A stretch of DNA of 64,000 bases from a virus (lineage: Duplodnaviria; Heunggongvirae; Uroviricota; Caudoviricetes), in the IMG/VR virus record IMGVR_UViG_3300035034_002381, positions 1 to 64,000 of that record; one strand, written 5' to 3'. Shown here piece by piece: positions 7,225 to 47,925 of this stretch. The first letter of the stretch is position 1. Every line of letters starts with the position of its first letter. The translations under genes were made by a program, and so were the position numbers. The notes under the pieces are model-generated. The model did not search any database. It was not told the origin of the DNA and was given only the letters and a program-made list of their open reading frames with translations.

Positions 7225-7425
7225 ATGGAAAGTTTTAAAAGTATACTCGAATCTAAAGATTCTGATAAACTCGCAAAAGAGATCAATAATGCAATCATTA
7301 AAATTGATGATTCTATGTCATACAAAGATTTTGCAGCTGCAGTTATCAAAATAATGAAAGAAGAATACGGAGAACACCTATATACAGAATTCTTAGGAAT
7401 TTTACAAAAAAATCTAAAGAAATGA
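7225..7425 (+). CDS. small hypothetical protein; N-terminus MESFKSILESKDSDKL is paralogous to the 47731 ORF
   Basis: 66 aa; conserved 16-aa N-terminus shared with MKSFKKVLENKEADKL. Confidence 0.45.
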   Translation: MESFKSILESKDSDKLAKEINNAIIKIDDSMSYKDFAAAVIKIMKEEYGEHLYTEFLGILQKNLKK

Positions 7426-10785: not shown

Positions 10786-10787
10786 AT

Positions 10788-10899: not shown

Positions 10900-10904
10900 C
10901 AAAT

Positions 10905-10978
<74 letters not shown>

Positions 10979-10984
10979 CTATCT

Positions 10985-15075: not shown

Positions 15076-15110
15076 ATTATTTTGATTATATTTAAACAAA
15101 TAAAATTGGT

Positions 15111-16139: not shown

Positions 16140-16355
16140 TGGAGGAAAGAGATATTCGCATTTACATTTATGATCCAGGAAGTTTGAAAAAATTCCACCA
16201 AATCATAAACACAAACATAAAAGTATTGAGTCTGCAGAAGAACTAATAAAAAGGCTACAAGAAAACCCTAAATTTAGATTTGACAGGAGACAATTTGTGA
16301 TTACGGAATACACTGGAGTTTACCAATCATCAATAATCAAAATCATAAATCCTTT

Positions 16356-16688: not shown

Positions 16689-16712
16689 CCATAACATATT
16701 ATCCTTTTCTTA

Positions 16713-16747
16713 ATGACCAAGATTCTAAGAATCTTGGTCATTTTTTA
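16713..16747 (+). terminator. rho-independent terminator (ATGACCAAGATTC-TAA-GAATCTTGGTCAT plus TTTTTT)
   Basis: 13-bp perfect hairpin then T-run. Confidence 0.75.
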
Positions 16748-17058
16748 TGAGAAAAATCTATATATATAAACTAATAATATGTATGGACACAGAATCACAT
16801 AGCTCGTTTAGCGAATCTTTACAAGATAGAAATTACTATCTAGTCAAAGATTACTTACATGAACTAGGATTTTTGCCCTCACAATATTATATTAAAGATT
16901 ATCAGAATTCAATTGAAGTTGATTTTGATGATAATCAAGCCGTCTTTTATATTATAGAAGATATCAAAAAGACAAAATACATAGAGCATTTTGATGTTGA
17001 TTATAAAAAGCCGGCGAATTCAAGAAGACATACTGCAGTGTTTAATTTCACTCAGTAA
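16747..17058 (+). CDS. hypothetical protein
   Basis: 103 aa. Confidence 0.4.
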   Translation: MRKIYIYKLIICMDTESHSSFSESLQDRNYYLVKDYLHELGFLPSQYYIKDYQNSIEVDFDDNQAVFYIIEDIKKTKYIEHFDVDYKKPANSRRHTAVFNFTQ

Positions 17059-17119
17059 AAAATGAGAATAAAAAAAATCATTTTATCCTTGATATATAAA
17101 AAAACAAATATAGAAAAAG

Positions 17120-19195
17120 ATGAACAAAGATTCTAATGTATTATTAATACTTGAAAGATCTTCATCAAATCTAGATGTTAACAAGGAATCGGGTGATTAT
17201 ATTCTCGAAGGTATTTTTGCTCAATTTGGAGTTGAAAACAATAACAAAAGGATTTATGAGGAAAAAGAGTATTTACCACATCTCGAATACTTAAAAAAGA
17301 AAATTTCAGAAAATCGATTGATGGGAGAACTTGATCACCCAGAAAAATTTGAAATTGCTTTAGACAAAGTATCTCACGTAATTGAGAATATTGAATATGA
17401 TCAAGCAAAACGCCAGATTAAAGGGCGTGTACGTATTTTAGATACGCCATCCGGAAAAATCGCAAAGAGTCTAATCGACTCTAATATTCCTATTAGTATT
17501 TCATCACGAGCTGCTGGTTCTGTGAGTGAAAATAAAACTGTTTCTATTAAGAGAATTTTTACTTATGATTTAGTTGCTGATCCAGGTTTTGAAGATGCAC
17601 AATTATCAAGAATAAATGAATCATTTGGTTTAGACAACGAAAATAATCTACAAATTTTTGATGCTTCTAGATGGGACAACAATTTTTCGTTTGATGAAAA
17701 AGAAAAAGAAAAGCCTGTTGAGGCAATAAAAGAAAATAAAGAAAATACTACAGATATGAAAGAATTTGTGACAATTGAAAGCATGGAACGCTATTCATTA
17801 ATGGTCAAAGAAGAAATTGCTAAAATCAATACACGATTAGAAACTCTGAATGAGAGTAATGCTAATTCTGATGAAACAGCAGAACTTAGAAAAACCGTTG
17901 ATAATTTAGTAGGGTATGTTAATGAAATGGCTACCGAAATTAATCAAAACAGAGAATACATGTCATATACTGCTGAAATGCTTGACGAAAGTATTTCTTG
18001 GTCAGAAAATGAGATCGGTAATCAAGTTACTAAATTAATTGAATATACTGAATCTGAATTGGCTGTTCATCTTGATGGTTTAATTGAACACAATAACTAT
18101 CTTGCAGAAAAATTAAACACGACTATTGGATACGTTAATGAAGAATTGGCTCCAATTTTAGATGAGTCTATTAATCACAATGATTATTTAGTTGAACAAA
18201 TTGCTAATAACCGAAAATATACTGAGTATCTTGCTGAAAATGCTGTAGACTCAACAAATTTTGATTCGTTAGTAGAATATACTGAACATGTATATGAAAA
18301 TGCTGCTGGAAAATTTGAAGGTAAAATTAATGAATCTGCAACTGCTGAGGATGTAATTAAAAAACATAAACTTAAAACACATCACGATGTTGCTAAGTTT
18401 ATAGGAGATTTTTATGATTTACCAGATACAATTAAAGGATCTACCGATAAATTCACATTTAAAGACGTTGAGGACAACGTAATTAAAGTTGATGGTAAAG
18501 CAGGAACAGTAGACGGTAAAAAATTATCTCTGGCGGGATTGGTTGATCTTATGTCAGGTGGTGATTTTGATCTTCTTATTGAAAATCAAGCTAATAAAAT
18601 TAACGAAAATAAAAACGTATCAACAGATATTGAAAATCGATACATGAGTATCAATGAAAAAATTGACGCGGCTCTTGAGCAGATCAAGAAAACAAAGACT
18701 GAAGAAATCACAGAGTCTAAACGTCATCCTTTCACCAAACTACTCAACGAAAGTAATAGAGCTGCTTTCACTGAGTTAGGAAAAACCGAAAAAGAAAAGG
18801 TTTCAAAAGCTCTAAATGAAAACGGTATTTTAAGTACTGTAAAACTTAACGAAAAATTCACTTCATTGTTAGAAGGTAATTTCGAAATTGTTGAAGAGCC
18901 TAAATGGTTATCTGAAGCACCAGACAAGTATAAAGCTATTTTTGAAAGTTTGAATGAGGAAACTCAGGATAAACTTAGAGCTCAAGCTTCATGGTACGAA
19001 GGTAAACTTAAATCTCCTTATCAAATCGAAAATTTCTGGGCAACTAGAGGACTGAACGAAGACGTTGAGTTGAAGAATCTGAAAGACGATGCTGATGTAA
19101 AACTTATTAAAGAAAGTAATGATAGATCTAAAGATCTGGGTTATTCTTCTGATCGAGTTGCTGCAATTAAACAAGGTCTGAAAAGATTCAAATAA
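17120..19195 (+). CDS. prohead maturation protease (HK97/S78-like N-terminal domain) fused to a scaffolding-like coiled-coil region
   Basis: N-terminal ~150 aa with GELDHPE and ISISSRAAGS resembling the S78 His and Ser motifs; remaining ~540 aa acidic, helical and repeat-rich; immediately upstream of capsid gene. Confidence 0.55.
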   Translation: MNKDSNVLLILERSSSNLDVNKESGDYILEGIFAQFGVENNNKRIYEEKEYLPHLEYLKKKISENRLMGELDHPEKFEIALDKVSHVIENIEYDQAKRQIKGRVRILDTPSGKIAKSLIDSNIPISISSRAAGSVSENKTVSIKRIFTYDLVADPGFEDAQLSRINESFGLDNENNLQIFDASRWDNNFSFDEKEKEKPVEAIKENKENTTDMKEFVTIESMERYSLMVKEEIAKINTRLETLNESNANSDETAELRKTVDNLVGYVNEMATEINQNREYMSYTAEMLDESISWSENEIGNQVTKLIEYTESELAVHLDGLIEHNNYLAEKLNTTIGYVNEELAPILDESINHNDYLVEQIANNRKYTEYLAENAVDSTNFDSLVEYTEHVYENAAGKFEGKINESATAEDVIKKHKLKTHHDVAKFIGDFYDLPDTIKGSTDKFTFKDVEDNVIKVDGKAGTVDGKKLSLAGLVDLMSGGDFDLLIENQANKINENKNVSTDIENRYMSINEKIDAALEQIKKTKTEEITESKRHPFTKLLNESNRAAFTELGKTEKEKVSKALNENGILSTVKLNEKFTSLLEGNFEIVEEPKWLSEAPDKYKAIFESLNEETQDKLRAQASWYEGKLKSPYQIENFWATRGLNEDVELKNLKDDADVKLIKESNDRSKDLGYSSDRVAAIKQGLKRFK

Positions 19196-19213
19196 AAAAT
19201 AATTTCATAATAA

Positions 19214-21007
19214 ATGAAACTTTTAAACGAACAAAAGATCTATGATGAGTGGGCTCCTATGCTAGAGGAGGAAACTTCAATCAAAGATTCTTCAAAATTG
19301 GGATGGATGACTAAATATTGTCACTACCATTCATTAAATGAAGCATTCACTGCACCTGCAGCTGGATTGCTTAACACGCCAGGTATGGGTAATGTAACTC
19401 CTGCTGGAGCTGCTGCCGGTGGTGCTAATGCATTCTACGGAAGTACTACTACTGGTTCAGGAGATAAATTCCCTTCATTATTGCCACTATCTATTCAGGT
19501 AGCTGCAAGAACTGTAGGATTTGATATCGTTCCTGTTATTCCTATGAACGGACCTTCGGGGGTTCTTACATACATGGATTATGTCTATGCTGGTGGAAAA
19601 GGAGCATTCGGAGCACCTCCAGGTGCTGCAGGTGCTGCAAACCCAGGTCTTAACGCTTACGCTGACAAGCCGTTAGTATTCAAAATCCAACTTGTTGGAG
19701 ATGAGAAAACTGCTTTCGATGCTGCTGCTGCGGGTGATGAATTCTTATTTGCTTCTGGTGCACTTGCTGCAACTGGAAACACACTACGTGTTGCTAAAAT
19801 CGGTCCTTCTAGAATCGACGGTCACTCTATTTTTAGAGTAATTGGAGAATCTGGTGATGCTGATGCGACTGGCGGTGCAGCTGCTGCTGTAGCGACAACT
19901 CTTACATCGCCACAATCTATCACATTGGCTTCTGTATTTACAGGAACTGCTGCGATGATTACTGCGGCTGGTGCTTTAGTTGATGCTGCTGATTCAGTAG
20001 TTAATCGTCCAGAACTTGTTAAAGCTCTTGAAGATCACGTTCAAGGTTTTGCTGGTGCAGGTCCAAACGATGATGAAGCATGGTCAGGAAATGCGACTGA
20101 TGGTACTGTATCTTACGAACCAATGCGAAGAGGTGTAGGTGAAGAGCAGTACTTCAGAACTATGGGACTTCAAGCTTTCACGAAATTCATTGAAGCTGAA
20201 ACTTTCCAAGTTGCTGCTAATGTTACTACAGAACAAATTCAAGATTTACAACGTCAGTATGGAATCGATGTGATTGCAATGATCGAGAACTCATTAGTAA
20301 ATGATATCTCTCAATCTATTAACAAGCACATTCTTTCTAGAGCTTTCGCTCTTGGATGGGGTGCAAACCTTACATTCAGAGATGTTGAAGGTGCAAACCT
20401 TAACCTTGAATTGGTAAACACTGGAACTGGTGTTACTGCAACTCCTGCTTACATTGATAAGACTGGAGTAGGTACTGCATCTGTATATCCTGCTTTCCAA
20501 GAATTTGCTGGAGCTGCTGCTGCTGCATCATTGGAAAACCAAGCAACATTCCAACGAAGAGTATATTCTAAAGTACTTGCTGCTGGAAACGTTGTTACTC
20601 AAAGAGGACGTAGAGGACCTGCAAACTTCATTGTTACTAACCTTCAGTTAGCGACAGCGTTGCAAGATTCTGCACAATTCTCTTGGGCACCAATGGCAAA
20701 CACCATTAACCAAAACAACGGTTCGCTTTACCCAGTGGGTACTGTAGCCGGAATGACTGTTTATGTAGATCCTAACATGGGATTCTCTGATAACAGAATT
20801 CTTGTTGGACGTAAAGGTGCTGATGAAGAACCAGGACTTAAATTCATGCCTTACTTAATGGCTGAATCAATCCAAACAATTGCTGAAGGTACAATGGCTC
20901 CGAAAGTTGCCGTAAAATCACGTTATGCTTTAGTTGAAGCTGGACACCACCCAGAAACAATGTACTTTACTATTGCAGTAAATGTACCTGTAGGTGGATT
21001 AGTATAA
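19214..21007 (+). CDS. major capsid protein (putative)
   Basis: 597 aa, Ala/Gly/Thr-rich, directly follows protease-scaffold, followed by strong terminator. Confidence 0.6.
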   Translation: MKLLNEQKIYDEWAPMLEEETSIKDSSKLGWMTKYCHYHSLNEAFTAPAAGLLNTPGMGNVTPAGAAAGGANAFYGSTTTGSGDKFPSLLPLSIQVAARTVGFDIVPVIPMNGPSGVLTYMDYVYAGGKGAFGAPPGAAGAANPGLNAYADKPLVFKIQLVGDEKTAFDAAAAGDEFLFASGALAATGNTLRVAKIGPSRIDGHSIFRVIGESGDADATGGAAAAVATTLTSPQSITLASVFTGTAAMITAAGALVDAADSVVNRPELVKALEDHVQGFAGAGPNDDEAWSGNATDGTVSYEPMRRGVGEEQYFRTMGLQAFTKFIEAETFQVAANVTTEQIQDLQRQYGIDVIAMIENSLVNDISQSINKHILSRAFALGWGANLTFRDVEGANLNLELVNTGTGVTATPAYIDKTGVGTASVYPAFQEFAGAAAAASLENQATFQRRVYSKVLAAGNVVTQRGRRGPANFIVTNLQLATALQDSAQFSWAPMANTINQNNGSLYPVGTVAGMTVYVDPNMGFSDNRILVGRKGADEEPGLKFMPYLMAESIQTIAEGTMAPKVAVKSRYALVEAGHHPETMYFTIAVNVPVGGLV

Positions 21008-21032
21008 GAAATATCTTAAACTATATAAATAC

Positions 21033-21067
21033 CGAGAGGGGATCGAAAGATTCCCTCTTTTTTTTTG
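21033..21067 (+). terminator. rho-independent terminator (GAGAGGGGA-TCGAAAG-ATTCCCTCTC plus TTTTTTTTT)
   Basis: Strong hairpin then 9 T. Confidence 0.8.
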
Positions 21068-21070
21068 CAT

Positions 21071-21099
21071 AAAACTTTATTCAATATTGTATATATAAT
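21071..21099 (+). promoter_or_regulatory. promoter-like motif AAAACTTTATTCAAT-N6-TATATAAT (copy 2)
   Basis: Matches 10985-11014. Confidence 0.45.
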
Positions 21100-21116
21100 A
21101 TACAATTATTAGAGCC

Positions 21117-22802
21117 ATGAACACTTCAGTCAAAGATATTATAAAAAACGTAAAATCCACCAAAGGTTTAGCAGTAAAAATATCAAATTCAGAAAGTCTA
21201 AATAAAGAACTTTTAGAATTAACCAAATACCTACCAACAGACTCTAGTATATCTGAGCGCATTTATAATATCTTAAATAATATTGATGTACAAAGTCTTT
21301 GTATTTGTGGTGACACATTACCATTCATTAAAATTTCCAAAGGTTACAAAACTTCGTGTGGTAATAAAGAATGTAAGTCGCGAACACGGAGTAATATTAA
21401 TAAAGAATCCAGTAAGAAAATAGACTGGGGCGAATCGATCAATAAACAACAAAAAACCAATTTACAAAAATACGGTTATGTTTCTAATCTTGCATCACCT
21501 AAAGAACGAGAAAAACATAAAGTTATTCTTAAAGAATTGACTGGATATGAACACCCATTACAGAATCCTGAATCTAAAAAGAAAAGACATAACACTTGTA
21601 TAAAAAATCATGGTACATTAAATTTCATCCATTCAAATAAATCAATACAAACGTTACAAGCAAAATATAATACCACTGCCACTAATTGTGCTCAAATACC
21701 CGAAATTCAAGATAGATCTGCCAAAACCCAATCTATAAATGCTGATAAAGCTTTATATCAAAAAATTGATAAAATAAATAAAACTATAATAGATCTTAAT
21801 AAAACAAATGCTAATATTGAGTGTGTGGGTTGTGGTCGTATTATGAATATACATCGGCAAGCACTCAATTATTATATTCGAAATTCTATTGACAATTGTT
21901 GGTCTTGCAACCCTGATTTTTCACCATTTGCCAGTAACAAAGAAAAGATGATTGTTACATGGCTCACTGATATAGGTATCACAAATATTGACACAAATCG
22001 CCGGAGATTTGGTGGTAAAGAAATAGATATTTTCTTAAATGATTATAACCTAGGAATTGAATTCAATGGCACATATTGGCATAGTGAATTACACAAAGAA
22101 AAAAATTACCATTTAAATAAAAAAACATATATTGAGAACTTGGGTTTCAAGTTGATTAATGTTTGGGAAGATGATTGGGAAGATGATATAAAACGTAATA
22201 TAATTCAAAGCAGAATTAAAAATTTAATAAACCTAAATCACCGCAAAATATATGGGCGTAAATGTCAGATAGTTCAAATATCTAACAAAGAAGCTAAAGA
22301 ATTTTATACCAATAATCATATTCAAGGTCATGCTATATCAGAAATTAACTACGCATTAGTATATGATAATGAAATTGTTTCAGTCATGAGCTTTTCTAGT
22401 AAAAATAGATTTTTCATTAAGAAAAATAGGGATAATGAAATAGAGTTGACTAGATTTGCAAATTTGATAGGTGTAAGTGTTTTAGGTGGTTTCTCTAAAC
22501 TATTCAAACATTTTTTGAAAAATAATGACCATGATACCATTATTTCATTTGCAGAATTTGATTGGACTGATGAGACTAATAATGTTTATCTTATGAATGG
22601 TTTTAAATTTTTAGGGAATTCTGGACCATCGTATTCATGGGTTGTTAATGGAAAACGGTTTTCTAGATTTAACTTTTCTAAGCAAAAATTAATCAAAGAA
22701 GGTTATGATAAGAATAAAACAGAAGTCGAAATAATGCACGAAAGAAAATATTATCGAGCTTGGAATAGTGGTAACTTAAAATTTATTTATAATAAATTAT
22801 AA
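21117..22802 (+). CDS. free-standing homing-endonuclease-like protein (Zn-ribbon motifs plus Vsr/PD-(D/E)xK-like core)
   Basis: CxxC...CxxxC pairs (CICGD...CGNKEC; CVGCGR...CWSC); segment GGKEIDIFLNDYNLGIEFNGTYWHSE resembles Vsr/DUF559-type nuclease core; inserted after capsid gene and flanked by a duplicated capsid 3' end. Confidence 0.45.
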   Translation: MNTSVKDIIKNVKSTKGLAVKISNSESLNKELLELTKYLPTDSSISERIYNILNNIDVQSLCICGDTLPFIKISKGYKTSCGNKECKSRTRSNINKESSKKIDWGESINKQQKTNLQKYGYVSNLASPKEREKHKVILKELTGYEHPLQNPESKKKRHNTCIKNHGTLNFIHSNKSIQTLQAKYNTTATNCAQIPEIQDRSAKTQSINADKALYQKIDKINKTIIDLNKTNANIECVGCGRIMNIHRQALNYYIRNSIDNCWSCNPDFSPFASNKEKMIVTWLTDIGITNIDTNRRRFGGKEIDIFLNDYNLGIEFNGTYWHSELHKEKNYHLNKKTYIENLGFKLINVWEDDWEDDIKRNIIQSRIKNLINLNHRKIYGRKCQIVQISNKEAKEFYTNNHIQGHAISEINYALVYDNEIVSVMSFSSKNRFFIKKNRDNEIELTRFANLIGVSVLGGFSKLFKHFLKNNDHDTIISFAEFDWTDETNNVYLMNGFKFLGNSGPSYSWVVNGKRFSRFNFSKQKLIKEGYDKNKTEVEIMHERKYYRAWNSGNLKFIYNKL

Positions 22803-22863
22803 TATATACAACATATATACTTGTTGAGGCGGGTCACCACCCAGAAACAATGTTCCCTCTTTT

Positions 22864-22918
22864 TATGTTTAAAACTTATATTAATCTTAGATATATAAAC
22901 TACATATAATCAAATAAT
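22864..22918 (+). promoter_or_regulatory. second copy of promoter-like element ATGTTTAAAACTTATATTAATCTTAGATATATAAAC...TATAAT
   Basis: Near-identical to 6523-6576. Confidence 0.5.
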
Positions 22919-22966
22919 ATGAAGACATTTAATGAATACGAACAAATCAATGAATCTGGTAATTAA
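22919..22966 (+). pseudogene. decayed member of the MK-x-F-x-EF family (MKTFNEYEQINESGN then stop; reading continues in another frame)
   Basis: Start-region paralogy to 6577 copy including upstream promoter element; premature stop after 15 codons. Confidence 0.35.
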
Positions 22967-23235
22967 AACTGCACAAAAAATTCAAATAGATCTTAAGAAA
23001 TTTCTTGAAGATGTAGTAATACCAGCATCTAATGGATATGTTAGAAATGAAGGTGATGCAGCTTTATTGTTATACGATATACTTGCACAAAAATATGATA
23101 TTACAACATAGACGCTATGAATGACGACGAAAAAATATAGTTTAAGTTCCAAATTATAGATTTAGTTAAGAAAAATCCCAACAATGAAAAACTGGGTGAA
23201 AAGATTAGATCTTTTACTAAAAATATGATATAAAG

Positions 23236-23484
23236 ATGAAAAACATAAAAGATTTTGGTGAGTTTAAATTAAATGAAAAAAGAAATGAGGCACTGAAAAA
23301 GGTTAAAACATCTTCGACTGTGCTAGATAATTTTGTTATGGATGTATTAAAAACTCAAAAGCTTTATCAAAACGAAATTCCTAAGCTACTTGCTAATGAT
23401 AAAGAATTAATAACTGAATTCAAAGAAGGTCGACAAGCATTTAATGATCTTCGAATATTAAATGATATGCTTGCAAAGAAATAA
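23236..23484 (+). CDS. small protein with capsid-targeting-like N-terminus MKNIKDFGEFKLNE
   Basis: 82 aa; family N-terminus. Confidence 0.55.
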   Translation: MKNIKDFGEFKLNEKRNEALKKVKTSSTVLDNFVMDVLKTQKLYQNEIPKLLANDKELITEFKEGRQAFNDLRILNDMLAKK

Positions 23485-23492
23485 ATAATACA

Positions 23493-23702
23493 ATGAAAAA
23501 CTTAAAAACATTTGAACAGTTTGTAACTGATAAGCTAATGGAAGGTGCAATGTCTGATATACATCTTATGGCTAAAAATTCTAAAACTATAGAAAATTTT
23601 ATAAAAGCTTTTTATAAAAAATACGATAATAAAGTCAAGAAGGGAAAAAGCACTGATGAATGGATAATCAGTCTATATAATGATATGGAATCAAAAACAT
23701 AA
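23493..23702 (+). CDS. small protein with capsid-targeting-like N-terminus MKNLKTFEQFVTDKLME
   Basis: 69 aa; family N-terminus. Confidence 0.55.
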   Translation: MKNLKTFEQFVTDKLMEGAMSDIHLMAKNSKTIENFIKAFYKKYDNKVKKGKSTDEWIISLYNDMESKT

Positions 23703-23711
23703 ATACCACTA

Positions 23712-24743
23712 ATGAAAAATTTAAAAACATTTGAACAATTTGAACTAGAAAATCTTAATGAGAAAGTGGGTTATAATCAAATTTCACACAAAAATAAAAG
23801 TTTTGTAGTTTATAATCATAAAGGAATTGAAGATTTATCTAAAAAATATAAAATTGTCAACCTAAAGAATTCTGTAGGACCTGATATAGAATTTCCTGCA
23901 ATAGCAGAATTAGATAATAATAAACCTTTTATTAGAAACATCTATAGACATGAGCTTGATAAATTAGAAAAAGGAATCTTTTTCGAATCCCATAATTTAG
24001 ACAAAGATGCTAAACTTTTTGAATCTGGAGCGATAACTAAAATTTTGACAGATGCAGGATTTATCAGTTTTGAAGACTCTGATGAATATGATTATGATAT
24101 AGGAATAGGTGGAGTAATTAACACTGTTGATCCAGGTATAGCTAAAGATATAGCAGATGAATTAAATGATAATGGTATATCTGCGAAAGCAAAAAGAGAT
24201 ACTGTAATTGTTGAATCTGTGAATGAGGGAATTTACGCTGATAAACTCGCAAAAGGATTATGGGATGGTGACATGGATTTTTCCGATTTAAGTAAAAGTG
24301 AACAAGACTTAATCGACAAGTTCGTCAAAAGAAATCTTGGTATCTTTAAAGACGAAAGATTTGAGATTCCCTTTCCTGATGAAGCTGCTGACACTGGAGA
24401 GTTTTGGGATGAAATTCAAAAAGATAAAGATTACTCAAAATTTGCAAAGGCTGTTAAAAAAGCAAGTTTGGGTGAAATTGAGTTTGTGAACGAATCTATT
24501 AATCAGATTCCTGGAGAAATACAATTTAATGTTGAACCACATACGTTTCTTAAAGATCCTAGAGAACTAGACAAAGCAGTAGCTGAAGTTGATAAATATT
24601 TAGCGGGCGGTAAAGAAAACATTGGCGGATTTATGATAGATCGATATTTAAAAGATTCTTTTGATCTTGATGCGTTTATTGACTCTGTGCATTTACATTA
24701 CCCTAGACCAATGATTCCTGAAATTCAATCCAAGAATCTATGA
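23712..24743 (+). CDS. acidic protein with capsid-targeting-like N-terminus MKNLKTFEQFELENLNE
   Basis: 343 aa; family N-terminus. Confidence 0.6.
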   Translation: MKNLKTFEQFELENLNEKVGYNQISHKNKSFVVYNHKGIEDLSKKYKIVNLKNSVGPDIEFPAIAELDNNKPFIRNIYRHELDKLEKGIFFESHNLDKDAKLFESGAITKILTDAGFISFEDSDEYDYDIGIGGVINTVDPGIAKDIADELNDNGISAKAKRDTVIVESVNEGIYADKLAKGLWDGDMDFSDLSKSEQDLIDKFVKRNLGIFKDERFEIPFPDEAADTGEFWDEIQKDKDYSKFAKAVKKASLGEIEFVNESINQIPGEIQFNVEPHTFLKDPRELDKAVAEVDKYLAGGKENIGGFMIDRYLKDSFDLDAFIDSVHLHYPRPMIPEIQSKNL

Positions 24744-24937
24744 ATGAAGCTAGTCATAAAAATGATTTTCTTGATTTTTTCCGAGTTCCTGATTCTAAAA
24801 GGTTAAAATTTGCAATTTATAAATTTGATGGTAATGACGATATGGATGATTTATTTGATGATCTTAAACCTTATGCATCGACAGTTGATGAGGTTAGAAA
24901 CTATTATGAAATAGCAACAAAAACACGCGATAATTAA
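24740..24937 (+). CDS. small acidic hypothetical protein
   Basis: 65 aa; ATGA overlap. Confidence 0.4.
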   Translation: MNEASHKNDFLDFFRVPDSKRLKFAIYKFDGNDDMDDLFDDLKPYASTVDEVRNYYEIATKTRDN

Positions 24938-25806
24938 TGAACTTTAAAACATATTCACATCTGAAGGAAATTCTTCATGAAAGTGAAAATTATCAAGAAG
25001 TAATACATGAAGCTTTTGAATGGATTGAGGATGATTCTATTTTTGAGGCATACGCGTGGGCTTTTATTAAAAGCCCTGTTAAAGTGACTAAAATGTTTAC
25101 TAATCAAAATAAGCTTACAAAATCTTTAATTAGTCAGGCTGTTATTGATATTGATCTACAGAATCGTAAAGAAGCTGCTAAAAAAATATCTGACCCACAG
25201 AAAGCCAAAAACCAGAGAGAAAAACTCCAACAAGCTCATGACATAAAGAAAAAGGGTTTATCCGATAAAATCAGTGGTATAAAACAAAGAATTGATGATT
25301 TAGCTGGTAGTGATTCTAAACTTCAAGAATTGGCTTCAAATTTAAAAACTAAATCTGGATTAGCTGCTGCAGAGAAATTAATTAAGGCAGCTGATGGGGC
25401 AGAACAGAAAGAATTACAAATTAAGATTAGAAAAAGTAAAGAAAAACTTTCGAGACAAGAAAACATTTTTAAAGAATATGAGTCTAATCTTTCTACTGAG
25501 GATAAAGCTAAAGGTCAAGAACAAGCTAAAACTGCTAAATCTGAAGACGATGGAAAATCTGATTCTACTAAAAAGGATGCAGAGTCTTCTATTGAGGAAA
25601 AAATCGAGGCGGAAAAGGATGCAATTAACGATTTAGTTAGAGAATTTAATGGGAAGAAAAAGAAAATTGCAGAAGCTAGAAAAAGATCGCATATTACACA
25701 AGCAAAATTTGATGAGTTAATGAAAAATCTCATGAAAGAAGGTCACCAAGAAAAAATTGATGTTCATAAAAAGAACATTATAGATTTAAAAAAGAATAGC
25801 AAATAA
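24937..25806 (+). CDS. Lys/Glu-rich coiled-coil hypothetical protein
   Basis: 289 aa; N-terminus MNFKTYSHLKEILHE weakly family-like. Confidence 0.5.
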   Translation: MNFKTYSHLKEILHESENYQEVIHEAFEWIEDDSIFEAYAWAFIKSPVKVTKMFTNQNKLTKSLISQAVIDIDLQNRKEAAKKISDPQKAKNQREKLQQAHDIKKKGLSDKISGIKQRIDDLAGSDSKLQELASNLKTKSGLAAAEKLIKAADGAEQKELQIKIRKSKEKLSRQENIFKEYESNLSTEDKAKGQEQAKTAKSEDDGKSDSTKKDAESSIEEKIEAEKDAINDLVREFNGKKKKIAEARKRSHITQAKFDELMKNLMKEGHQEKIDVHKKNIIDLKKNSK

Positions 25807-26081
25807 TGAAAAAGGCAAGAACATTTACAGAATTTAATGAGTCTATATCAAACGAAGAAGAACTAAATGAAGCAGTCGATGTATTTATCGCAATTGCTGA
25901 AGCTTTAGACGTAAGTTTAGATGTCGCAAAAATGATAGTAGCTTTGGCAGGAGTCACCGGAACAGTAACTTTCGCAGCAGCAATGACAAAAATCCAAGAT
26001 GTATTGGCAAAGAAAAATCCTAAATTATCTAAGAAATTAGGTGATATTACAAAAGGAGCAAATAACGCGAGAACACAATAG
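25806..26081 (+). CDS. small protein with N-terminus MKKARTFTEFNESISNEEELNE
   Basis: 91 aa; family-like N-terminus. Confidence 0.5.
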   Translation: MKKARTFTEFNESISNEEELNEAVDVFIAIAEALDVSLDVAKMIVALAGVTGTVTFAAAMTKIQDVLAKKNPKLSKKLGDITKGANNARTQ

Positions 26082-26085
26082 AAAT

Positions 26086-26505
26086 ATGGATGATATTAGC
26101 AATGGAGGTGGAATTCTCCAAAAAACAAAGATACTTACAGTAACAAATAAGATTGGTTATGCCAAGAATTCTGAGGGTGTGACTTCTGTATTTGCTAATA
26201 CTGATATTGGAGCAGGCGATCTTATCGAGGTTGCGACCCTTCTAGAAGTTTCAGATATGGTGATGACAAATAGAGAAATTGCTGATCATGTTTTTACAGT
26301 AAATCCAGAAAGTAAACAATATGCGATCGGTTTAGGATTTGCTTGTTTATATCAACATAACGATAAACCTAACGCCGAGTGGAATATACCTAGCGATAAA
26401 AAGGAAATCAGATTTACTGCTAAAGACGACATAAAAAAATCTGAAGAAATCACAATTTCATACGGAAAGAATTATTTCCTAAGTAGAGAAAAGAAAGAGG
26501 AATAA
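26086..26505 (+). CDS. SET-domain protein (putative lysine methyltransferase, vSET-sized)
   Basis: About 139 aa; LYQHNDKPNAEW resembles the NHSCxPN pseudoknot region; EEITISYGKNYF resembles the ELxxDYG C-terminal SET motif. Start taken at internal ATG 26086 after the stop of the preceding gene. Confidence 0.5.
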   Translation: MDDISNGGGILQKTKILTVTNKIGYAKNSEGVTSVFANTDIGAGDLIEVATLLEVSDMVMTNREIADHVFTVNPESKQYAIGLGFACLYQHNDKPNAEWNIPSDKKEIRFTAKDDIKKSEEITISYGKNYFLSREKKEE

Positions 26506-26562
26506 ATTTTGGAATAAGCTAAAACATTTGAGGCTTTCATGAATATAAACTAAAAGATATTC

Positions 26563-26973
26563 ATGAAAGCCTTTACTTATGTTATAGATATTGATGACAC
26601 TATCAATATTACCGATAGAGATGAAAATAATATAGGACTGTATTCTCAGTCTCGGCCGATACTTAAAGTTATCAATAAAATTCGAAGACTTAAAAAAGAA
26701 GGCCACAAAATCATACTTTTTACTGCTAGAGGTATGCGTACATTTAATAATGATGTCAAAAAAATCGAAGATTTTCATAGAGAAACACTCGTTAAATGGT
26801 TAAATGACCATGAAGTCCCTTATGACGAACTACAGTTCGGTAAACCATGGGGCCCCCATGTAATATATGTCGATGATCGTGCTGTTACTATTAACCAATT
26901 TGTTTTGGGTGGTCCCGAAAATCACAGAAGTTATACACACATTAACAAAACAGTTATAAATGATGAATTATAA
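26563..26973 (+). CDS. HAD-superfamily phosphatase
   Basis: DxDxT motif YVIDIDDTI near N-terminus; 136 aa. Confidence 0.5.
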   Translation: MKAFTYVIDIDDTINITDRDENNIGLYSQSRPILKVINKIRRLKKEGHKIILFTARGMRTFNNDVKKIEDFHRETLVKWLNDHEVPYDELQFGKPWGPHVIYVDDRAVTINQFVLGGPENHRSYTHINKTVINDEL

Positions 26974-28660
26974 AGTAATTATTCCCGCGGCAGGGAAGGC
27001 ATCAAGACTCAAGCCTTTATCTTCTTCAATGTCAAAATCAATGGTGCCAGTAAATGGTAAACCAATAATTTCATATATTCTTGATCAACTGTTTGAACTA
27101 GGAAATCCATTTCAAATAGTTATTGTTGAAAATGAGCTCGGTGATATTCAAGATTTTGTTAAAAACGCATATCCAAATTATTATGAAGAATCCCGTATTC
27201 TTTTTGCAACTCAAAAAGAAAGGTTAGGTCCTTTGCATGCTATTGAAATTGGTGCAAATAGGTTTCCGGAAAATGATAACATGCCAATTATGGTTTGGCT
27301 CGGAGATACAATCTGTTTGGAAATGGGTGAGTTGCCAGTTAATGAATCTTTATTAATTACATCGCCTGTCGCCGATTATAAAAGATGGTGTTTAGTAGAT
27401 AACGAGAATGTCTTCTATGATAAACCAGATAACAAACCAAGCACTAACCAAGCTTTAATAGGTATATATTATTTCCATGATTTTAAGGCCTTCTACGAGG
27501 CCCTAGATAAGGGAATGCAAGCTCCTATGATTAAAGATGAACATCAAATATCGGCTTTATTAGAAGCATATAAAAAACAACATATATTCAAAATCAGAAA
27601 AACTGATGAATGGTTTGATTGTGGTGAGTTACATACATTTTATGAATCTAAAGCAAGACTTCTTGGAAGATCTGCCAGGTCATTTAATAGTCTAGAAGTA
27701 AATACATTCCATAACACAATTACTAAATCTTCATTAACATTCGAAGGTAAACTGAAAATTGAGAATGAAAAAAATTGGTATTTAGGTTTACCTGAGAATA
27801 TTCAGATTCTCACACCTAGAGTATTAAAATCAAATTCAGGTACGCTAGTTATGTCGCAAGAACCTGGAACACCTCTTAATGAAATGTGGCTTTATGAGGA
27901 TTTGACTGATGATACATGGAAAAGAATAATTGATAAAACGTTACTTATACACAATAAAATTTTCTATCAATCTAGATATATTCCTAAATCTTCTAAATTA
28001 GATAGATTTGCTGCAAGAAAGGAAATGTATCTGACTAAAAATATTGACAGATTGACAGAAATTTCATTCCTGCCTTTTGCACAGAAAAATATAAAAATGA
28101 TTCGAGATTTTGTGCGGGTTACTGGTGAATTATTAATTGAAGATGAAGGTCGTTGGTCGCCACATTTTCATGGAGATTCTCACATGGGTAATATTTTATT
28201 TGAACCTTTACAGGGAAGTATGAAATTTTTGGATCCACGTGGAAAGTTTGGAAATATCGTAGGCATTGAGGGCGATATGTATTATGATATGGCTAAAATT
28301 GCGCAAGATTTTCTTTTACGCTATCCTGAAATTTTATCTGGTCATTATCATTTTAGTGGAGATAATTTTGACCAGCTTGAATTTTATAGAAATGACGAGA
28401 GATCTAAAACTATGCTAAAACATTTCAGAAAAAGAATTGGTGAATATGGTTATATTCCTAATCTTGTTTTAATGTTAGCAACTGTGCTTATCATAACTTG
28501 TATACCTTTTCATAAAGACGATCCAGAAAGACAAAAAGCATTTTGGTATATGGCAGTAAATGTTATTAAAGAAAGAGGGTGGAATATCCAACTCGAAGAT
28601 CATCTCAAAAAACAAAAATTACAATTATCAGACAAGATACATAATCTATACAACTTATAA
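26960..28660 (+). CDS. bifunctional sugar/alcohol-phosphate nucleotidyltransferase (LicC/RmlA-like N-terminus) plus choline/aminoglycoside-kinase-like domain (LicA-like C-terminus)
   Basis: N-terminus KVIIPAAGKASRLKPLS...MVPVNGKPIISYILDQL (GxGxR nucleotidyltransferase motif); C-terminus HFHGDSHMGNILFEP and IEGDMYYDMAKIAQDF (kinase-fold catalytic motifs). Confidence 0.6.
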   Translation: MMNYKVIIPAAGKASRLKPLSSSMSKSMVPVNGKPIISYILDQLFELGNPFQIVIVENELGDIQDFVKNAYPNYYEESRILFATQKERLGPLHAIEIGANRFPENDNMPIMVWLGDTICLEMGELPVNESLLITSPVADYKRWCLVDNENVFYDKPDNKPSTNQALIGIYYFHDFKAFYEALDKGMQAPMIKDEHQISALLEAYKKQHIFKIRKTDEWFDCGELHTFYESKARLLGRSARSFNSLEVNTFHNTITKSSLTFEGKLKIENEKNWYLGLPENIQILTPRVLKSNSGTLVMSQEPGTPLNEMWLYEDLTDDTWKRIIDKTLLIHNKIFYQSRYIPKSSKLDRFAARKEMYLTKNIDRLTEISFLPFAQKNIKMIRDFVRVTGELLIEDEGRWSPHFHGDSHMGNILFEPLQGSMKFLDPRGKFGNIVGIEGDMYYDMAKIAQDFLLRYPEILSGHYHFSGDNFDQLEFYRNDERSKTMLKHFRKRIGEYGYIPNLVLMLATVLIITCIPFHKDDPERQKAFWYMAVNVIKERGWNIQLEDHLKKQKLQLSDKIHNLYNL

Positions 28661-28670
28661 AAAACATACT

Positions 28671-28949
28671 ATGAGCAAAGATTTAGAAAAAGCTAGTGAG
28701 ACACTAGAAGAAACATTGACAGATATCCAAAAGGTGGCAGCTGCTAATTTTTATGATATTGTACAAATTAGTTTAGCCGATAAAGAAGGTAAAGTAGTTG
28801 GTAAAGCTTCTATGAAATATGAAGATATTTTAGCAATGACTAAGATGCATACACAAGATTCTTCACACGTTGTAGGAATGTTATTTCATGCAGTCGAATC
28901 AGAAACTCGTAACAAATTACGAGAAGAAAAAGAAAATGAAGCCAAATGA
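28671..28949 (+). CDS. hypothetical protein
   Basis: Internal ATG of listed ORF 28560..28949 chosen to avoid overlap with upstream gene. Confidence 0.4.
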   Translation: MSKDLEKASETLEETLTDIQKVAAANFYDIVQISLADKEGKVVGKASMKYEDILAMTKMHTQDSSHVVGMLFHAVESETRNKLREEKENEAK

Positions 28950-29134
28950 TTTTTAAAGTAAGAGTAGAAGAAAAGAGCATAGAAGATGTTATAGAACTTA
29001 TTGAAACAGGAGAAGGGAAAAAAGGTCTCCAATTTGATCTATATAATGAAAAACCATATTTTTCACATGTAGAAATTTTCGTTAATACTGATGATTTCTA
29101 CACATTAAAGGATTATTTAAATGAACAAACCTAA
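28946..29134 (+). CDS. small hypothetical protein
   Basis: 62 aa; ATGA overlap. Confidence 0.35.
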   Translation: MIFKVRVEEKSIEDVIELIETGEGKKGLQFDLYNEKPYFSHVEIFVNTDDFYTLKDYLNEQT

Positions 29135-31064
29135 GACTATATGTCTTGTTATGATTGTAAAAAATGAGGCAAAAAATTTACCTCGTTGTTTTTCTACGAT
29201 CAAACATATTATTGATTATTGGGTAATTGTTGATACTGGTTCAACTGATAACACACAGGAAGTTATACAGAAAGAGTTAGCCGATATTCCTGGTGTATTA
29301 ATGGAAAGACCGTGGGTCAATTTTGGTCATAATAGATCCGAATCTTTGGCTTTTGCTAAAAACAGAGCAGATTATCTTTTGCTTTGTGATGCTGATGAAC
29401 AAATTATACCTACACACAATTTTGACAAATCTGAGTTGACTCTTGATCAATATCATTTAAGATATAATGGGAGCTTAGATTATATGGTTCCTTATCTTAT
29501 TAAGTCTAATTTGGCTTGGAGATTTGTAGGAGTTACCCATGAATTTTTGACAGCAAGTGACACAAAATCTTCAGGTGAGATTAAAAGCCTTTCAATTAAA
29601 GATTGGGGAGATGGTGGAGCAAAATCTGATAAATTTGAAAGAGACATTAAATTGCTCGAACAAGGTTTGATTGATGAACCGAAGAATGTTAGGTATATGT
29701 TTTATCTAGCAAATTCTTATAAGAATACTAAGGATTTTGATAACGCAATCAAATGGTATAAAAAACGTATCGATGCAGGGGGTTGGATAGAAGAAGTTAC
29801 ATGTTCATATGAATATATGGGAGGATGTTATCAGCAGAAAAATGACCACGGGAATGCGATTAAAACATGGATAGATGGTTATGAATTTAATCCTTCTCGT
29901 GCTGAGTGTTTATATGAGGCAGGTAAATTACTTCGTGAAGAAAATAAGAATAGAATAGCTTACGAATTTTTACAAAAGGCTAAAGAAATTCCATATCCTA
30001 CTAACGATAGATTATTTATCAAAAGAGATGTTTATGAATATTTGATAGATTATGAACTGACTATTTGTGCATATTATGTTAAACCAGAATATGATATGAC
30101 CGAGACATTTAAAAGGCTAATCTTTTGGCCAAGTCATTTACAACAAAACATTATACAAAATTTTAAGTTTTGGGCTAAAGATTTGAATACACTTATAGGT
30201 CAAGAGGAAAGTATGATCTTGGCTAAAGATTTGATTAGTAATGATTTGGTTGAGGGTTTTACACCTAGTTCCCCATCAATTCTTTTTCATAAAAATCGCA
30301 AGTACATAAATGTGCGCCAAGTATCATATAAAATTGACGAAAATGGTAAGTATTTAGATCGTGCAAGTGGAGGTCATTGTAAACATGTGAATACAATTAA
30401 CACAATGTATTGGACTGATGGACCCTCATATGACACGGAAAATTTTAAACCCAATGATATTTCTACTAAACATGTGAATGGTATTGAAGATCTAAAACTA
30501 TATACACACAATGGAGTAATCAAATACACTGGGACAAAATGGTTGGATTATAACAAAATTTCTATAGTTATTGGTGAGTATACTAAAGAAGGTCTAGATA
30601 ATTATGCTATTCTAGAGTCTCCAGAAGGAAGGAATGTTGAAAAAAATTGGGTACCGTTTGGATTAGATAATGAAGAACTTTTTGTATATGATTGGAATCC
30701 AATAAAAATTGGAAGAATCAAAAATAATAAACTAGTAATCAAAAATTTAAAAACTAGTTTTCCTAACTTGCGTGGATCAGCTCCTGGTAAACTTATTGGA
30801 GATCATATCTATTTTTTATGTCATTTTGTAGAATATTCTACACCAAGAATTTACTATCATATCTTCATTAAAATGCATAAAGATAATTGGGAAAAAATCG
30901 AGATTTCTAAACCGTTTGTTTTTGAAAAACCACAAATAGAATATTCAGTAGGATTTGATTATAATATTAAGACTGATGATATACATATTGCATATAGTGT
31001 AAATGATTCGAATGCAAGAATCAAATCTTATTCACAAACACAATTTCAAAAACTTTTTACTTAA
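29121..31064 (+). CDS. family 2 glycosyltransferase with TPR-like middle region and extra C-terminal domain
   Basis: TICLVMIVKNEAKNLPRCFSTIKHIIDYWVIVDTGSTDNT is typical of GT2 N-terminal DXD fold. Confidence 0.6.
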   Translation: MNKPKTICLVMIVKNEAKNLPRCFSTIKHIIDYWVIVDTGSTDNTQEVIQKELADIPGVLMERPWVNFGHNRSESLAFAKNRADYLLLCDADEQIIPTHNFDKSELTLDQYHLRYNGSLDYMVPYLIKSNLAWRFVGVTHEFLTASDTKSSGEIKSLSIKDWGDGGAKSDKFERDIKLLEQGLIDEPKNVRYMFYLANSYKNTKDFDNAIKWYKKRIDAGGWIEEVTCSYEYMGGCYQQKNDHGNAIKTWIDGYEFNPSRAECLYEAGKLLREENKNRIAYEFLQKAKEIPYPTNDRLFIKRDVYEYLIDYELTICAYYVKPEYDMTETFKRLIFWPSHLQQNIIQNFKFWAKDLNTLIGQEESMILAKDLISNDLVEGFTPSSPSILFHKNRKYINVRQVSYKIDENGKYLDRASGGHCKHVNTINTMYWTDGPSYDTENFKPNDISTKHVNGIEDLKLYTHNGVIKYTGTKWLDYNKISIVIGEYTKEGLDNYAILESPEGRNVEKNWVPFGLDNEELFVYDWNPIKIGRIKNNKLVIKNLKTSFPNLRGSAPGKLIGDHIYFLCHFVEYSTPRIYYHIFIKMHKDNWEKIEISKPFVFEKPQIEYSVGFDYNIKTDDIHIAYSVNDSNARIKSYSQTQFQKLFT

Positions 31065-32362
31065 TGTACATTATAAAAAACAATAAACTTGAATCTACTG
31101 ATAATATCGATTTATTTTTTAATGAGATAAATGTTGGACAACATATTGCTAAATATGGATATTTCGAAAGTGACCTTATTAATTGGTTAAAGCTTACATA
31201 TAAAAATAATGATAAAATCTTTTTAGATTTAGGAGCGCACATAGGTTCATATTCAATAGAATTAGCAGAAAATTTTCATTCAGTTCATTCATTTGAACCT
31301 AATCCAACAGTCTATAATCATTTATGTGCTAATGTTGCATTAAAGAGATTATCAAATAGGGTATTTCCACACAGAGTTGCATTATCGGATAATAAATCTA
31401 AACAGCCATATTATGAGAGATCCAAAGATGGTGGAGGTAATGGAATTGAAGTTGTAAGAGAGAACGATAAGCACTCATTCTTTGTAGAATCTAAATGTTT
31501 AGATGATTATTCTTTCGATAAAGAAATCGGTTTGATTAAAATTGATATCGAAGGTCATGAGTATAAAGCTATTTTGGGTGCATATGAAACTTTGAAAAAC
31601 TCATATTTCCCACCTATAATTTTCGAATCTTGGGCGCAAAATACACACCCAGAATATTCACAAGAAATACTTTTAGAAATTCGTGATAAAACATTTGATG
31701 TATTAAAGGATTATGGATACACTGTTAAATCCATAAGTGGATATAATGAAATGTTTATTGCTGTTCAAGAGCGTGAAAAATCTCAAGAAGATATTATTGT
31801 TGAAGGTCTTTTGACAGATAAGTTAGACGTATGGCTTAACTCACCTGGAGGGACTCGAAGCAATTATATAGCCGATGTTCTAGAAAAAAGTAATTTAAGA
31901 GTGAGAAACGAATCCTGGTATAAGTATGGTTGTCATTGGACTTCTCCTTTATTTGAAAGGGAATTTAAAACTACAAGATTGTTTTGCTACACTAGCGATA
32001 TCGGACTCGCATTGACAAGTCAGTTAAATGCCAATACTATTGATAAACTGAATTTTGCAGATTTTTATAATGAACCATGGGATTTATATCGATGGATACA
32101 AAATATTAAAAAACAAGTGATTAACTGGTCGGATCCTGGCGTATTCTTTTTAAATACCGACTATTTAAATGATAAAGATATTCAGTCTGAATTTAAAACT
32201 CTTACTGGAGATAGTTTAGACATATCAGATTTCAGACTTGACCGTAAATCTAAAAAATTACATCCTGCATTAATACAATACATGGATGAGATTAATGAGA
32301 TTAATGAGTTATTAGCAAAATTACCTAATGCCGGTTTTGGCGGAGAAGTTGATGAAGGTTAA
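31064..32362 (+). CDS. FkbM-family SAM-dependent methyltransferase, two-domain
   Basis: FLDLGAHIGSYSIELAE (FkbM glycine-rich motif) in N-terminal domain. Confidence 0.5.
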   Translation: MYIIKNNKLESTDNIDLFFNEINVGQHIAKYGYFESDLINWLKLTYKNNDKIFLDLGAHIGSYSIELAENFHSVHSFEPNPTVYNHLCANVALKRLSNRVFPHRVALSDNKSKQPYYERSKDGGGNGIEVVRENDKHSFFVESKCLDDYSFDKEIGLIKIDIEGHEYKAILGAYETLKNSYFPPIIFESWAQNTHPEYSQEILLEIRDKTFDVLKDYGYTVKSISGYNEMFIAVQEREKSQEDIIVEGLLTDKLDVWLNSPGGTRSNYIADVLEKSNLRVRNESWYKYGCHWTSPLFEREFKTTRLFCYTSDIGLALTSQLNANTIDKLNFADFYNEPWDLYRWIQNIKKQVINWSDPGVFFLNTDYLNDKDIQSEFKTLTGDSLDISDFRLDRKSKKLHPALIQYMDEINEINELLAKLPNAGFGGEVDEG

Positions 32363-46796: not shown

Positions 46797-47360
46797 ATGA
46801 AAAATTTAAAATCTTACGAAAATTTTGAGAATCAACTTTTAGAAAATGGGTGGAGTGGTGAACATCTCGACGCAAATTTTAAACTTGATGGAAATGAAGT
46901 AATTGTGACTTTTGATAAAGCCATGACTTCAGCAGTCAAAAAAGTTCTTGCTGGAAAGAACGATCCTCTACTTGATACAGTAGAGGATGAGATCAGAATT
47001 CAATTAGGTAGAGAAATTGACTGGGATCAAGATGTTGAACCATCTAAATCAGGTATAGGAATGAGATTTGTGCTTGAACATATTCAACTTTTTGAAGGAA
47101 AAGCTTCGCCTGGTGGTGAAATAGAAATTAAAGAACTACAAGATTTGGTAGATGATTTACCTAAAACTGTAATTACACAAAACGCAGAGTACGACAGATT
47201 CGACAGAAATTTTAATTTTGAATTTACAATTAGTGGTGATAATTGGCAGATATATTATGACAAATTGGCCAAGTCACCATATTTATTAAATCTGGATAGT
47301 GGAACGGATAAAGAAATAGTTAATCCACTGGAATTACAAAAATTACTTAAATCATTTTAA
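46797..47360 (+). CDS. protein with capsid-targeting-like N-terminus MKNLKSYENFENQLLE
   Basis: 187 aa; family N-terminus. Confidence 0.55.
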   Translation: MKNLKSYENFENQLLENGWSGEHLDANFKLDGNEVIVTFDKAMTSAVKKVLAGKNDPLLDTVEDEIRIQLGREIDWDQDVEPSKSGIGMRFVLEHIQLFEGKASPGGEIEIKELQDLVDDLPKTVITQNAEYDRFDRNFNFEFTISGDNWQIYYDKLAKSPYLLNLDSGTDKEIVNPLELQKLLKSF

Positions 47361-47730: not shown

Positions 47731-47925
47731 ATGAAAAGTTTCAAAAAAGTCTTAGAAAACAAAGAAGCTGATAAGCTATATACTTTAAAACTGGACTTGA
47801 TCAGTTGGTGGAAAGAAAATTCAAGTAAACCAAATGTTATAAAAAAGAGAAAAAACATTCAAGGTAAAATTGATCAAGTAGTAAAATTATTAGATGAAGT
47901 TGTAGATGAAACTTATGAAAAGTAA
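47731..47925 (+). CDS. small protein, N-terminus MKSFKKVLENKEADKL paralogous to the 7225 ORF
   Basis: 64 aa. Confidence 0.45.
   Translation: MKSFKKVLENKEADKLYTLKLDLISWWKENSSKPNVIKKRKNIQGKIDQVVKLLDEVVDETYEK

Follow-up and report, generated by a model that had tools for sequence, protein, structure and literature searches.

Why should proteins that have nothing else in common begin with the same few residues? This question is raised by a 64,000-nt stretch of viral DNA (IMG/VR record IMGVR_UViG_3300035034_002381, Caudoviricetes, positions 1 to 64,000), which we call the window and which is nearly the entire 64,373-nt metagenomic contig. Six of its genes, four of them between 23236 and 26081, start with variants of a peptide that we call the tag, and whose consensus among uncultured phages is M-K-N-[IL]-K-x-F-[EQ]-[EQ]-F-[ILV]-N-E. 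A first reading of the DNA (the sequence-only reading) had compared this N-terminus with the capsid targeting sequence (CTS) of the phage T4 internal proteins, which is removed after LxE by the prohead protease. We consider it probable, at about 0.7, that the shared N-terminus is a T4-type CTS, operating with a prohead-protease system in a lineage that is very distant from T4. The best-supported reading of the sequences is that the system is known in kind from T4, and that what is new here would be a slightly longer tag, the fusion of the protease to the scaffold and entirely new cargoes, by which we mean the proteins behind the tag.

One N-terminus on unrelated proteins

The window was scanned in all six frames for open reading frames (ORFs) that start with MK[NK]x[KR]x[FY]xxF. 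The scan returned exactly six, all on the + strand and all with an [LI]xE by residue 22, and they are the six that the sequence-only reading had grouped. We name them by their first position and give them here with the other members of the cluster.

6577..7140, + strand: tagged ORF, 187 aa; tag MKNVKNFREFLNE at 6577-6615; matrix score 31.7
22919..23235, + strand: decayed tagged gene; MKTFNEYEQINE, stop at codon 16, frameshifts and stops to 23235
23236..23484, + strand: tagged ORF, 82 aa; tag MKNIKDFGEFKLNE; predicted mature part 7.9 kDa, pI 9.5
23493..23702, + strand: tagged ORF, 69 aa; tag MKNLKTFEQF..KLME; predicted mature part 6.1 kDa, pI 9.3
23712..24743, + strand: tagged ORF, 343 aa; tag MKNLKTFEQFELENLNE; modular
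24740..24937, + strand: untagged 65-aa ORF; in a close relative an in-frame C-terminal extension of the 343-aa protein
24937..25806, + strand: Lys/Glu-rich basic protein, 289 aa; looser N-terminus MNFKTYSHLKEILHE, then S; kept in relatives
25806..26081, + strand: tagged ORF, 91 aa; degenerate tag MKKARTFTEFNE..ELNE, then A
46797..47360, + strand: tagged ORF, 187 aa; tag MKNLKSYENFENQLLE; acidic body without homologues (ORFan)

The six products range from 69 to 343 aa, and their bodies are as unrelated as had been claimed: in an all-against-all BLASTP comparison that included the neighbouring proteins, similarity was confined to the first 10-18 residues, with the partial exception of 23236 and 23493, which are weakly similar. 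The [LI]xE that had been said to follow soon after the motif lies within residues 9-22 in 6/6 tagged ORFs, versus 15/61 of the other window proteins. When a matrix built from N-termini found elsewhere is applied to the 1,150 Met positions of the window, the six ORFs score 37.1, 35.9, 31.7, 26.0, 12.1 and 1.5, and the best of the 1,144 others scores -3.5. The lowest of the six is 25806, whose assignment is marginal; the ORF at this position in a more distant relative (L264) has the canonical MKNVRTFEDFLNE, then G. The same relative has an orthologue of 24937 that begins MNFNTYNTL..TLNE, then D, and a distant homologue of 23493 in another contig (L031) begins MKHIKTFEQFINE. In 6577, whose body is also an ORFan, cleavage is predicted after E13. 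The decayed copy that had been noticed at 22919 is indeed one, as it reads MKTFNEYEQINESGN, then a stop, and then a frameshifted remainder.

The tag in other viruses

IMG/VR was scanned with a degenerate DNA pattern in which only M-K-N-x-K-x-F-x-[EQ]-F (residues 1-10) is fixed. F7 and F10 are thus imposed by the pattern itself, and residues 11-13 are unconstrained. At least 117 loci were found, and the counts on viral contigs that follow are those among the matches listed. The pattern heads an ORF of at least 60 aa in 113 of 129 cases, and nearly all of the matches have an upstream stop only a few codons away. Of the N-termini, 77 are distinct; in 52 of these, [LIVMF]xE occupies exactly residues 11-13 (the commonest tripeptides being INE, 16; VNE, 9; LNE, 8; and ITE, 5), and 55 have Glu at residue 13. 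At residue 14, small or polar residues prevail (mostly S, A, N or D), and no conservation is seen beyond this position. The sequence-only reading had suggested an alignment of N-termini across related phages as a check; among the viral N-termini compared here, conservation runs to [ILV]xE and stops after residue 14, which supports a cleavable tag. The same pattern gives 109 matches in 185,579 bacterial and archaeal genomes; 41 of them are in ORFs of at least 60 aa, and the [LIVMF]xE continuation is found in only 5 of these 41.

The tagged genes also keep the company of head genes. Of the loci selected by the motif (about 10 kb each), a homologue of the protease-scaffold protein described below (29-54% identity) is present in 17, and the capsid protein is encoded in 7. 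Several of these loci have a tagged 115-aa ORF (MKNLKTFEQFVLE...) some 75 nt upstream of the protease gene; in L018, the protease and capsid genes have a tagged ORF of 161 aa between them. One locus, L072, carries within 10 kb six tags with the two aromatic residues and two copies of MKGLFKNLNE, on unrelated ORFs. In L054, three tandem tagged paralogues (8372, 9942 and 10723, minus strand) have bodies made of FNGDISKWDVSNV-type repeats, which look leucine-rich-repeat-like when judged by eye.

The exact tag was not found in the sister clade L005-L017, whose capsid proteins are 51-55% identical to that of the window. The ORFs 3' of the capsid gene in that clade (for example five consecutive ones, L007 11883-16687) have looser N-termini with an aromatic residue followed by [LF]xE, such as MQNRIFKIHEFVLE and MKYFSNKFSSLLE, which may be a diverged tag. 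In Tenacibaculum phage PTm1, ORF-069 (L261 6343-7146, ORF-068/ORF-069) starts MKITFEELLAE, which is near the T4 tag, and is an isolated case in that phage.

Protease, scaffold and capsid

The presence of a prohead protease at 17120, which the sequence-only reading had asserted, is borne out by the finding of a Peptidase_S77 domain, and the capsid gene follows.

17120..19195, + strand: prohead protease-scaffold protein, 691 aa; Peptidase_S77 (T4 gp21) domain at residues ~16-140
19214..21007, + strand: gp23-type major capsid protein, 597 aa; phrog_138, and PF07068 in the L019 gene

The protease domain matches the T4 gp21 structure 5JBL (E 1e-5). In particular, a His (GELDHP) and a Ser (SSRAAGS) of the window protein align with the two positions that are mutated in the crystallised 5JBL protein (H85A, S140A). 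Given a 19-residue offset in the numbering of the chain, these would be the catalytic residues H85 and S140 of gp21 (PMC12991175). The remaining ~550 residues of the 17120 product are scaffold-like, and the PTm1 homologue is annotated as 'prohead core scaffolding protein and protease'. This tail contains 12 [LIV]NE sites, all at residues 165-645, against 0.2 per 100 aa in the other proteins of the window (Poisson P = 3e-8), a density that fits a scaffold which is chopped up and expelled. A length difference of 244 nt (18363-18607) falls inside the scaffold tail, the protein being 691 aa here and 608 and 611 aa in close relatives.

The major capsid protein is assigned to the gp23 type through phrog_138 and through PF07068, which is listed for the 99%-identical gene of L019. 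Its similarity to T4 gp23 structures has an E value of 7.5e-5. Its best matches among phage records are the uncultured 462-kb phage LR756500 (42.7%) and the Prevotella Lak megaphages (~40%), and from these genes we read the window as a huge-phage contig with T4-type head genes, whose capsid protein is closest to those of LR756500 and the Lak megaphages. The N-terminal 43 residues of the capsid protein (19214-19342) are conserved clade-wide, from 99% down to ~30% identity, and end in the window with LNE, then A. Across the clade, this predicted propeptide ends with an invariant LxE (LNE, LYE or LTE) that is followed by a variable Gly/Ala-rich linker. The layout is that of the T4 gp23 propeptide, which has 65 residues (PMC9026906) against 43 here.

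Likeness to known systems

The T4 CTS is MKTYQEFIAE, and it is cut once by gp21 (PMC8442874), which cuts after Glu and prefers I/LxE (PMC12991175). Suppressor analysis assigned residues 4 and 7 to targeting and residues 8 and 10 to processing (PMC9026906). According to the reviews that cover the original work, IPI, IPII and IPIII carry this CTS (Mullaney & Black 1996; PMC9026906, PMC3012670). After an insertion of three residues, T-F-E-Q-F-I-N-E of the window aligns with T-Y-Q-E-F-I-A-E of T4, so that the four mapped positions of T4 coincide with F7, F10, I11 and E13. The decayed copy MKTFNEYEQINE is still closer to the T4 tag in length. The two systems have in common a short N-terminal peptide on otherwise unrelated, non-conserved proteins, two aromatic residues three apart that are directly followed by [IL]-x-E, and a gp21-family protease and a gp23-family capsid protein encoded in the genome. 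They also share genes that vary between close relatives, and some of the cargoes are small and basic (6-8 kDa, pI 9.3-9.5). They differ in that the tag here has 13 residues, with three extra ones (N-[IL]-K) after MK, and in that the preferred site is [ILV]-N-E. Moreover, protease and scaffold are parts of one protein, the cargoes include several large, acidic ones, and one cargo is polyprotein-like; the phage is a huge one related to the Lak megaphages, with a capsid protein whose similarity to that of T4 is barely detectable, and the system is known here from its genes alone.

Two other comparisons are instructive. The internal-protein loci of T-even phages are described as hyperplastic (Repoila et al. 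1994, as cited in PMC12373910), and the window shares with them the gain and loss of whole genes between near-identical genomes and bodies without homologues; the genes lie here beside the capsid gene and in tRNA-rich regions, and not at the T4 positions. In phiKZ and SPN3US, a gp21-related protease cuts after Glu at A/S/G-x-E, the propeptides mostly exceed 100 residues, N-terminal propeptides are inferred to target proteins into the prohead, and paralogues with identical N-termini occur (PMC5694885). A gp21-related protease cutting after Glu (predicted here), an N-terminal peptide with a putative targeting role and N-termini shared among proteins are common to both, but the [ILV]-x-E sites and the short 13-aa tag of the window are like those of T4.

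The chain of events that we infer, from core binding to a possible function in the host, would be the following. As a short amphipathic peptide, the tag would attach to the scaffolding core while the prohead is being assembled, so that otherwise unrelated proteins would be dragged inside. Cleavage after the Glu of [ILV]-x-E, by the gp21-type protease of 17120, would then free the cargo of its tag. The 43-residue propeptide of the capsid protein (cut after LNE) and the scaffold tail (cut up at its twelve [LIV]NE sites) would be further substrates of this enzyme. Once mature, the cargoes would remain beside the DNA in the head, and would most likely pass into the host when the phage infects it. 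The proposal of a T4-like tag removed after LxE by the prohead protease is supported as regards the tag itself, the S77 protease, the motif in the capsid and scaffold proteins and the gene turnover, while packaging and cleavage are predictions from the sequence.

Weighing the explanations

A resemblance carried by the nucleic acid and not by the peptide is very improbable. It might come from a duplicated promoter or ribosome-binding site (RBS), from a 5' coding region that enhances translation, or from a recombination site; ATG AAA AAT is indeed a favourable AT-rich start, and the cassettes of 6577, 22919 and 46797 have a common terminator-promoter segment upstream. However, the in-operon copies (23236, 23493, 23712 and 25806) are preceded by DNA that consists of the unrelated 3' ends of the preceding genes, and their tag codons differ synonymously. 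When 54 distinct tags from other phages, among the matches listed, are compared, the codons differ in 31% of the same-residue pairs, and the Leu, Ile or Val found at positions 4 and 11 is encoded in many different ways. Furthermore, the cellular matches to the pattern lack the [ILV]xE continuation. Because of the codon differences and the unrelated upstream DNA of the in-operon copies, we conclude from the sequences that selection acts on the peptide and not on the DNA. The same two facts exclude the duplicated promoter/RBS segment, which the sequence-only reading had itself named as the outcome that would speak against it, and this candidate was rejected. Chance similarity between AT-rich N-termini that are rich in Lys, Asn, Glu and Phe was likewise rejected, by the matrix and the cellular controls. 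A G+C content of ~32% and the frequency of MK as a start would help it, but the external matrix separates the six ORFs from all of the other Met positions, and the motif is extended at positions that the pattern left free in 52/77 viral N-termini (among the matches listed) versus 5/41 cellular ones, which makes its probability practically negligible.

Two further explanations accept the peptide but give it another role. The tagged genes could be an ordinary paralogue family, produced by tandem duplication, with bodies that have diverged and an N-terminal helix retained for binding to a shared partner that is unrelated to the capsid (a chaperone or a target in the host, for instance). The ~80% DNA identity of 23493 and 23712 over the upstream region and the tag is consistent with local duplication, and 23236 and 23493 are weakly similar over their full length. 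We find this unlikely, since many phages carry the module on domains that are plainly unrelated (the leucine-rich-repeat-like bodies of L054 are one example), its conservation stops exactly at the protease-type [ILV]xE, the motif is found again at the end of the capsid propeptide and in the scaffold tail, and the tagged genes cluster beside the protease and capsid genes. Alternatively, the peptide could be a propeptide with no part in capsid targeting, whose removal by the protease would activate proteins that are kept inactive until head maturation or late infection. An [ILV]xE end and an S77 protease fit any maturation that depends on a protease, but the two aromatic residues, which in T4 serve targeting and not cleavage (PMC9026906), are the most conserved ones in the window copies, and a cleavage site alone would not need them; we thus hold this idea for decidedly unlikely.

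Several points weigh against a T4-type CTS as well. Four of the six window copies have their [LI]xE at residues 14-22 and not at 11-13, which makes the cleavage point less certain there, and this part of the signal is modest in the window taken by itself, as 25% of its other proteins also have an [LI]xE in that N-terminal span. The tag was not found in the whole genome of PTm1, nor in the ~40-kb regions of Lak-A2 and LR756500 that were searched, and two cargoes that are common in metagenomes gave nothing relevant in a tblastn search of the phage records, so that we have no cultured relative with the tag. The predicted mature forms of 6577, 23712 and 46797 are acidic (pI 4.5-5.6), unlike the basic T4 internal proteins, and the AlphaFold2 models, with mean pLDDT values of 34.8 for 46797 (single sequence) and 37.4 for 23712 (4-row alignment), are unusable. 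Finally, the timing of the putative late promoter discussed below is deduced solely from the genes that it precedes.

As for the scope of the T4-type CTS, we would give even odds to the broader claim that the tag is a packaging label, readable from the sequence, across a large set of marine and huge phages, none of them cultured, that have T4-type heads. Virion-delivered anti-restriction factors have their archetype in the T4 internal proteins, and the T4 tag serves as a tool for loading foreign proteins into capsids. If the broader claim is true, the virion-delivered repertoire could be listed from metagenomes, with hundreds of unrelated, fast-turnover cargoes that include repeat proteins and polyproteins cut at [LIV]NE. 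The proteins that reach the host with the DNA would become predictable from sequence for phages that nobody can grow, which would give a defined list of candidates for early-acting host-takeover or counter-defence proteins. The interaction between tag, scaffold and protease would also be among the most conserved features of this head lineage, because the core of the tag is near-identical to that of T4 despite the almost complete loss of similarity between the capsid sequences. In addition, a new tag for capsid loading, for example the peptide MKNLKTFEQFINE, could be tested. A literature search with the peptide strings found no relevant paper, and the wide occurrence of the tag in uncultured phages appears to be unreported in the literature searched.

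The cargoes

Searches of the cargoes against Pfam and PHROG gave nothing above noise. For 46797 and 6577, only the proteins themselves were found among 5.8 billion proteins. The homologue search with 23712 gave four proteins. Its family has three clear members, all mosaic, among 1.84e9 representatives, and an exhaustive profile search of these representatives added only three marginal matches. Within 23712, SVNE then G (around residue 171) and FVNE then S (around residue 258) coincide with the borders of the modules seen in the homologues. The conserved domain at its C-terminus (INQIPGE...) follows [LV]NE then S in every case, and comes directly after the tag in one homologue (P0003). Because [LV]NE always stands before this domain and an internal SVNE site is also present, 23712 is possibly a polyprotein that is cut into modules.

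The predicted mature forms of 23236, 23493 and 25806 are small (6-8 kDa) and basic (pI 9.3-9.5), and that of 24937 is basic (pI 9.2) with a mass of 31 kDa. Some of the tagged proteins, for example the 115-aa ORF beside the protease gene and perhaps 24937, may be components of the head core and not ejected effectors. In T4, Ip1-3 inhibit GmrSD enzymes (PMC12373910). That the cargoes of the window are anti-defence effectors, as had been proposed, is speculative: the idea draws on this analogy and on rapid turnover, and on nothing else.

A second, shorter class of N-terminus is found on unrelated small proteins, each of whose genes comes shortly after one that has the main tag, both in the window and in L072 (795 and 1014, minus strand).

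7225..7425, + strand: 66-aa ORF with second-class N-terminus, MESFKSILE, then SKDSD
47731..47925, + strand: 64-aa ORF with second-class N-terminus, MKSFKKVLE, then N

The homologue of 7225 in L072 begins MKGLFKNLNE, then SKDSD, and the same N-terminus is found there on an unrelated 225-aa ORF.

Gene turnover and promoter-like cassettes

The close relatives L019-L022 share ~99% identity with the window across most of each contig, with several indels, and comparison with them shows that few parts of the genome are exchanged as rapidly as the tagged genes. The segment 21100-23677, which holds a homing endonuclease gene, the decayed copy, 23236 and 23493, is present in the window and absent from L019/L020. 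A 1.2-kb segment with a 176-aa tagged gene (MKNIKSFEEFLYE, then G) is found in L019 only. In addition, L019 lacks 198 nt inside 23712, and there the 23712 and 24740 products form one fused protein. The features that flank these variable regions are the following.

6480-6555: terminator and GATATATAA cassette; upstream of 6577
21034..21100, + strand: terminator hairpin of the capsid gene and promoter-like GTATATATAA; left end of a 2.6-kb segment absent in close relatives
21117..22802, + strand: homing endonuclease, 561 aa; between the capsid gene and the tagged cluster
22850..22898, + strand: half terminator and GATATATAA promoter-like cassette; heads the tagged-gene cluster; conserved in L264
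46720..46774, + strand: terminator hairpin and GATATATAA promoter-like cassette; upstream of 46797

L019-L022 lack the homing endonuclease gene, but the more distant L264 has it at the same position; the gene is outside the tag system.

The promoter-like motif consists of a T-run, TTTAAAA and GATATATAA. The latter nonamer occurs 7 times in the window versus 2.1 expected, and it also lies 12-31 nt upstream of the protease gene (21 nt), of 50463 and of 56105 (sites 17091, 50448 and 56093), the last two genes being in or beside the tail/baseplate module. From the genes that it precedes, GATATATAA would be a late promoter. Promoter-stem-loop mobile regulatory cassettes (PeSLs) have reportedly been described for T4-type phages. 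As in these, terminator hairpin and promoter-like segments flank the variable cassettes of 6577, 22919 and 46797; the likeness is one of layout alone, and GATATATAA also precedes structural genes here.

The rest of the window

The long ORFs of the window are all on the + strand, and its G+C content is ~32%. A megablast search of 15000-27000 against 50,697 phage records gave no DNA match. A 665-aa ORF (12713-14710) has an N-terminal signal peptide (MKKLLLLLMLFSSVNLFSQ) and no family match; L019 lacks the whole segment 12764-15052. Directly 3' of the tagged cluster (26086-32362), a SET-domain ORF is followed by nucleotidyltransferase, glycosyltransferase and methyltransferase genes, and a nicotinamide phosphoribosyltransferase gene lies farther downstream (35996-37714). 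The window also carries 21 tRNA genes in three arrays (229-1094, 3901-4355 and 9277-10979), with duplicates for Met (x3), Tyr (x2) and Ile (x2); tRNA arrays with duplicates are typical of huge phages. The 423-aa ORF at 50463-51734, which has the GATATATAA motif upstream, contains a collagen-like Gly-Pro-rich stretch (GPTGPPGP) near its N-terminus and is probably a fibre protein.

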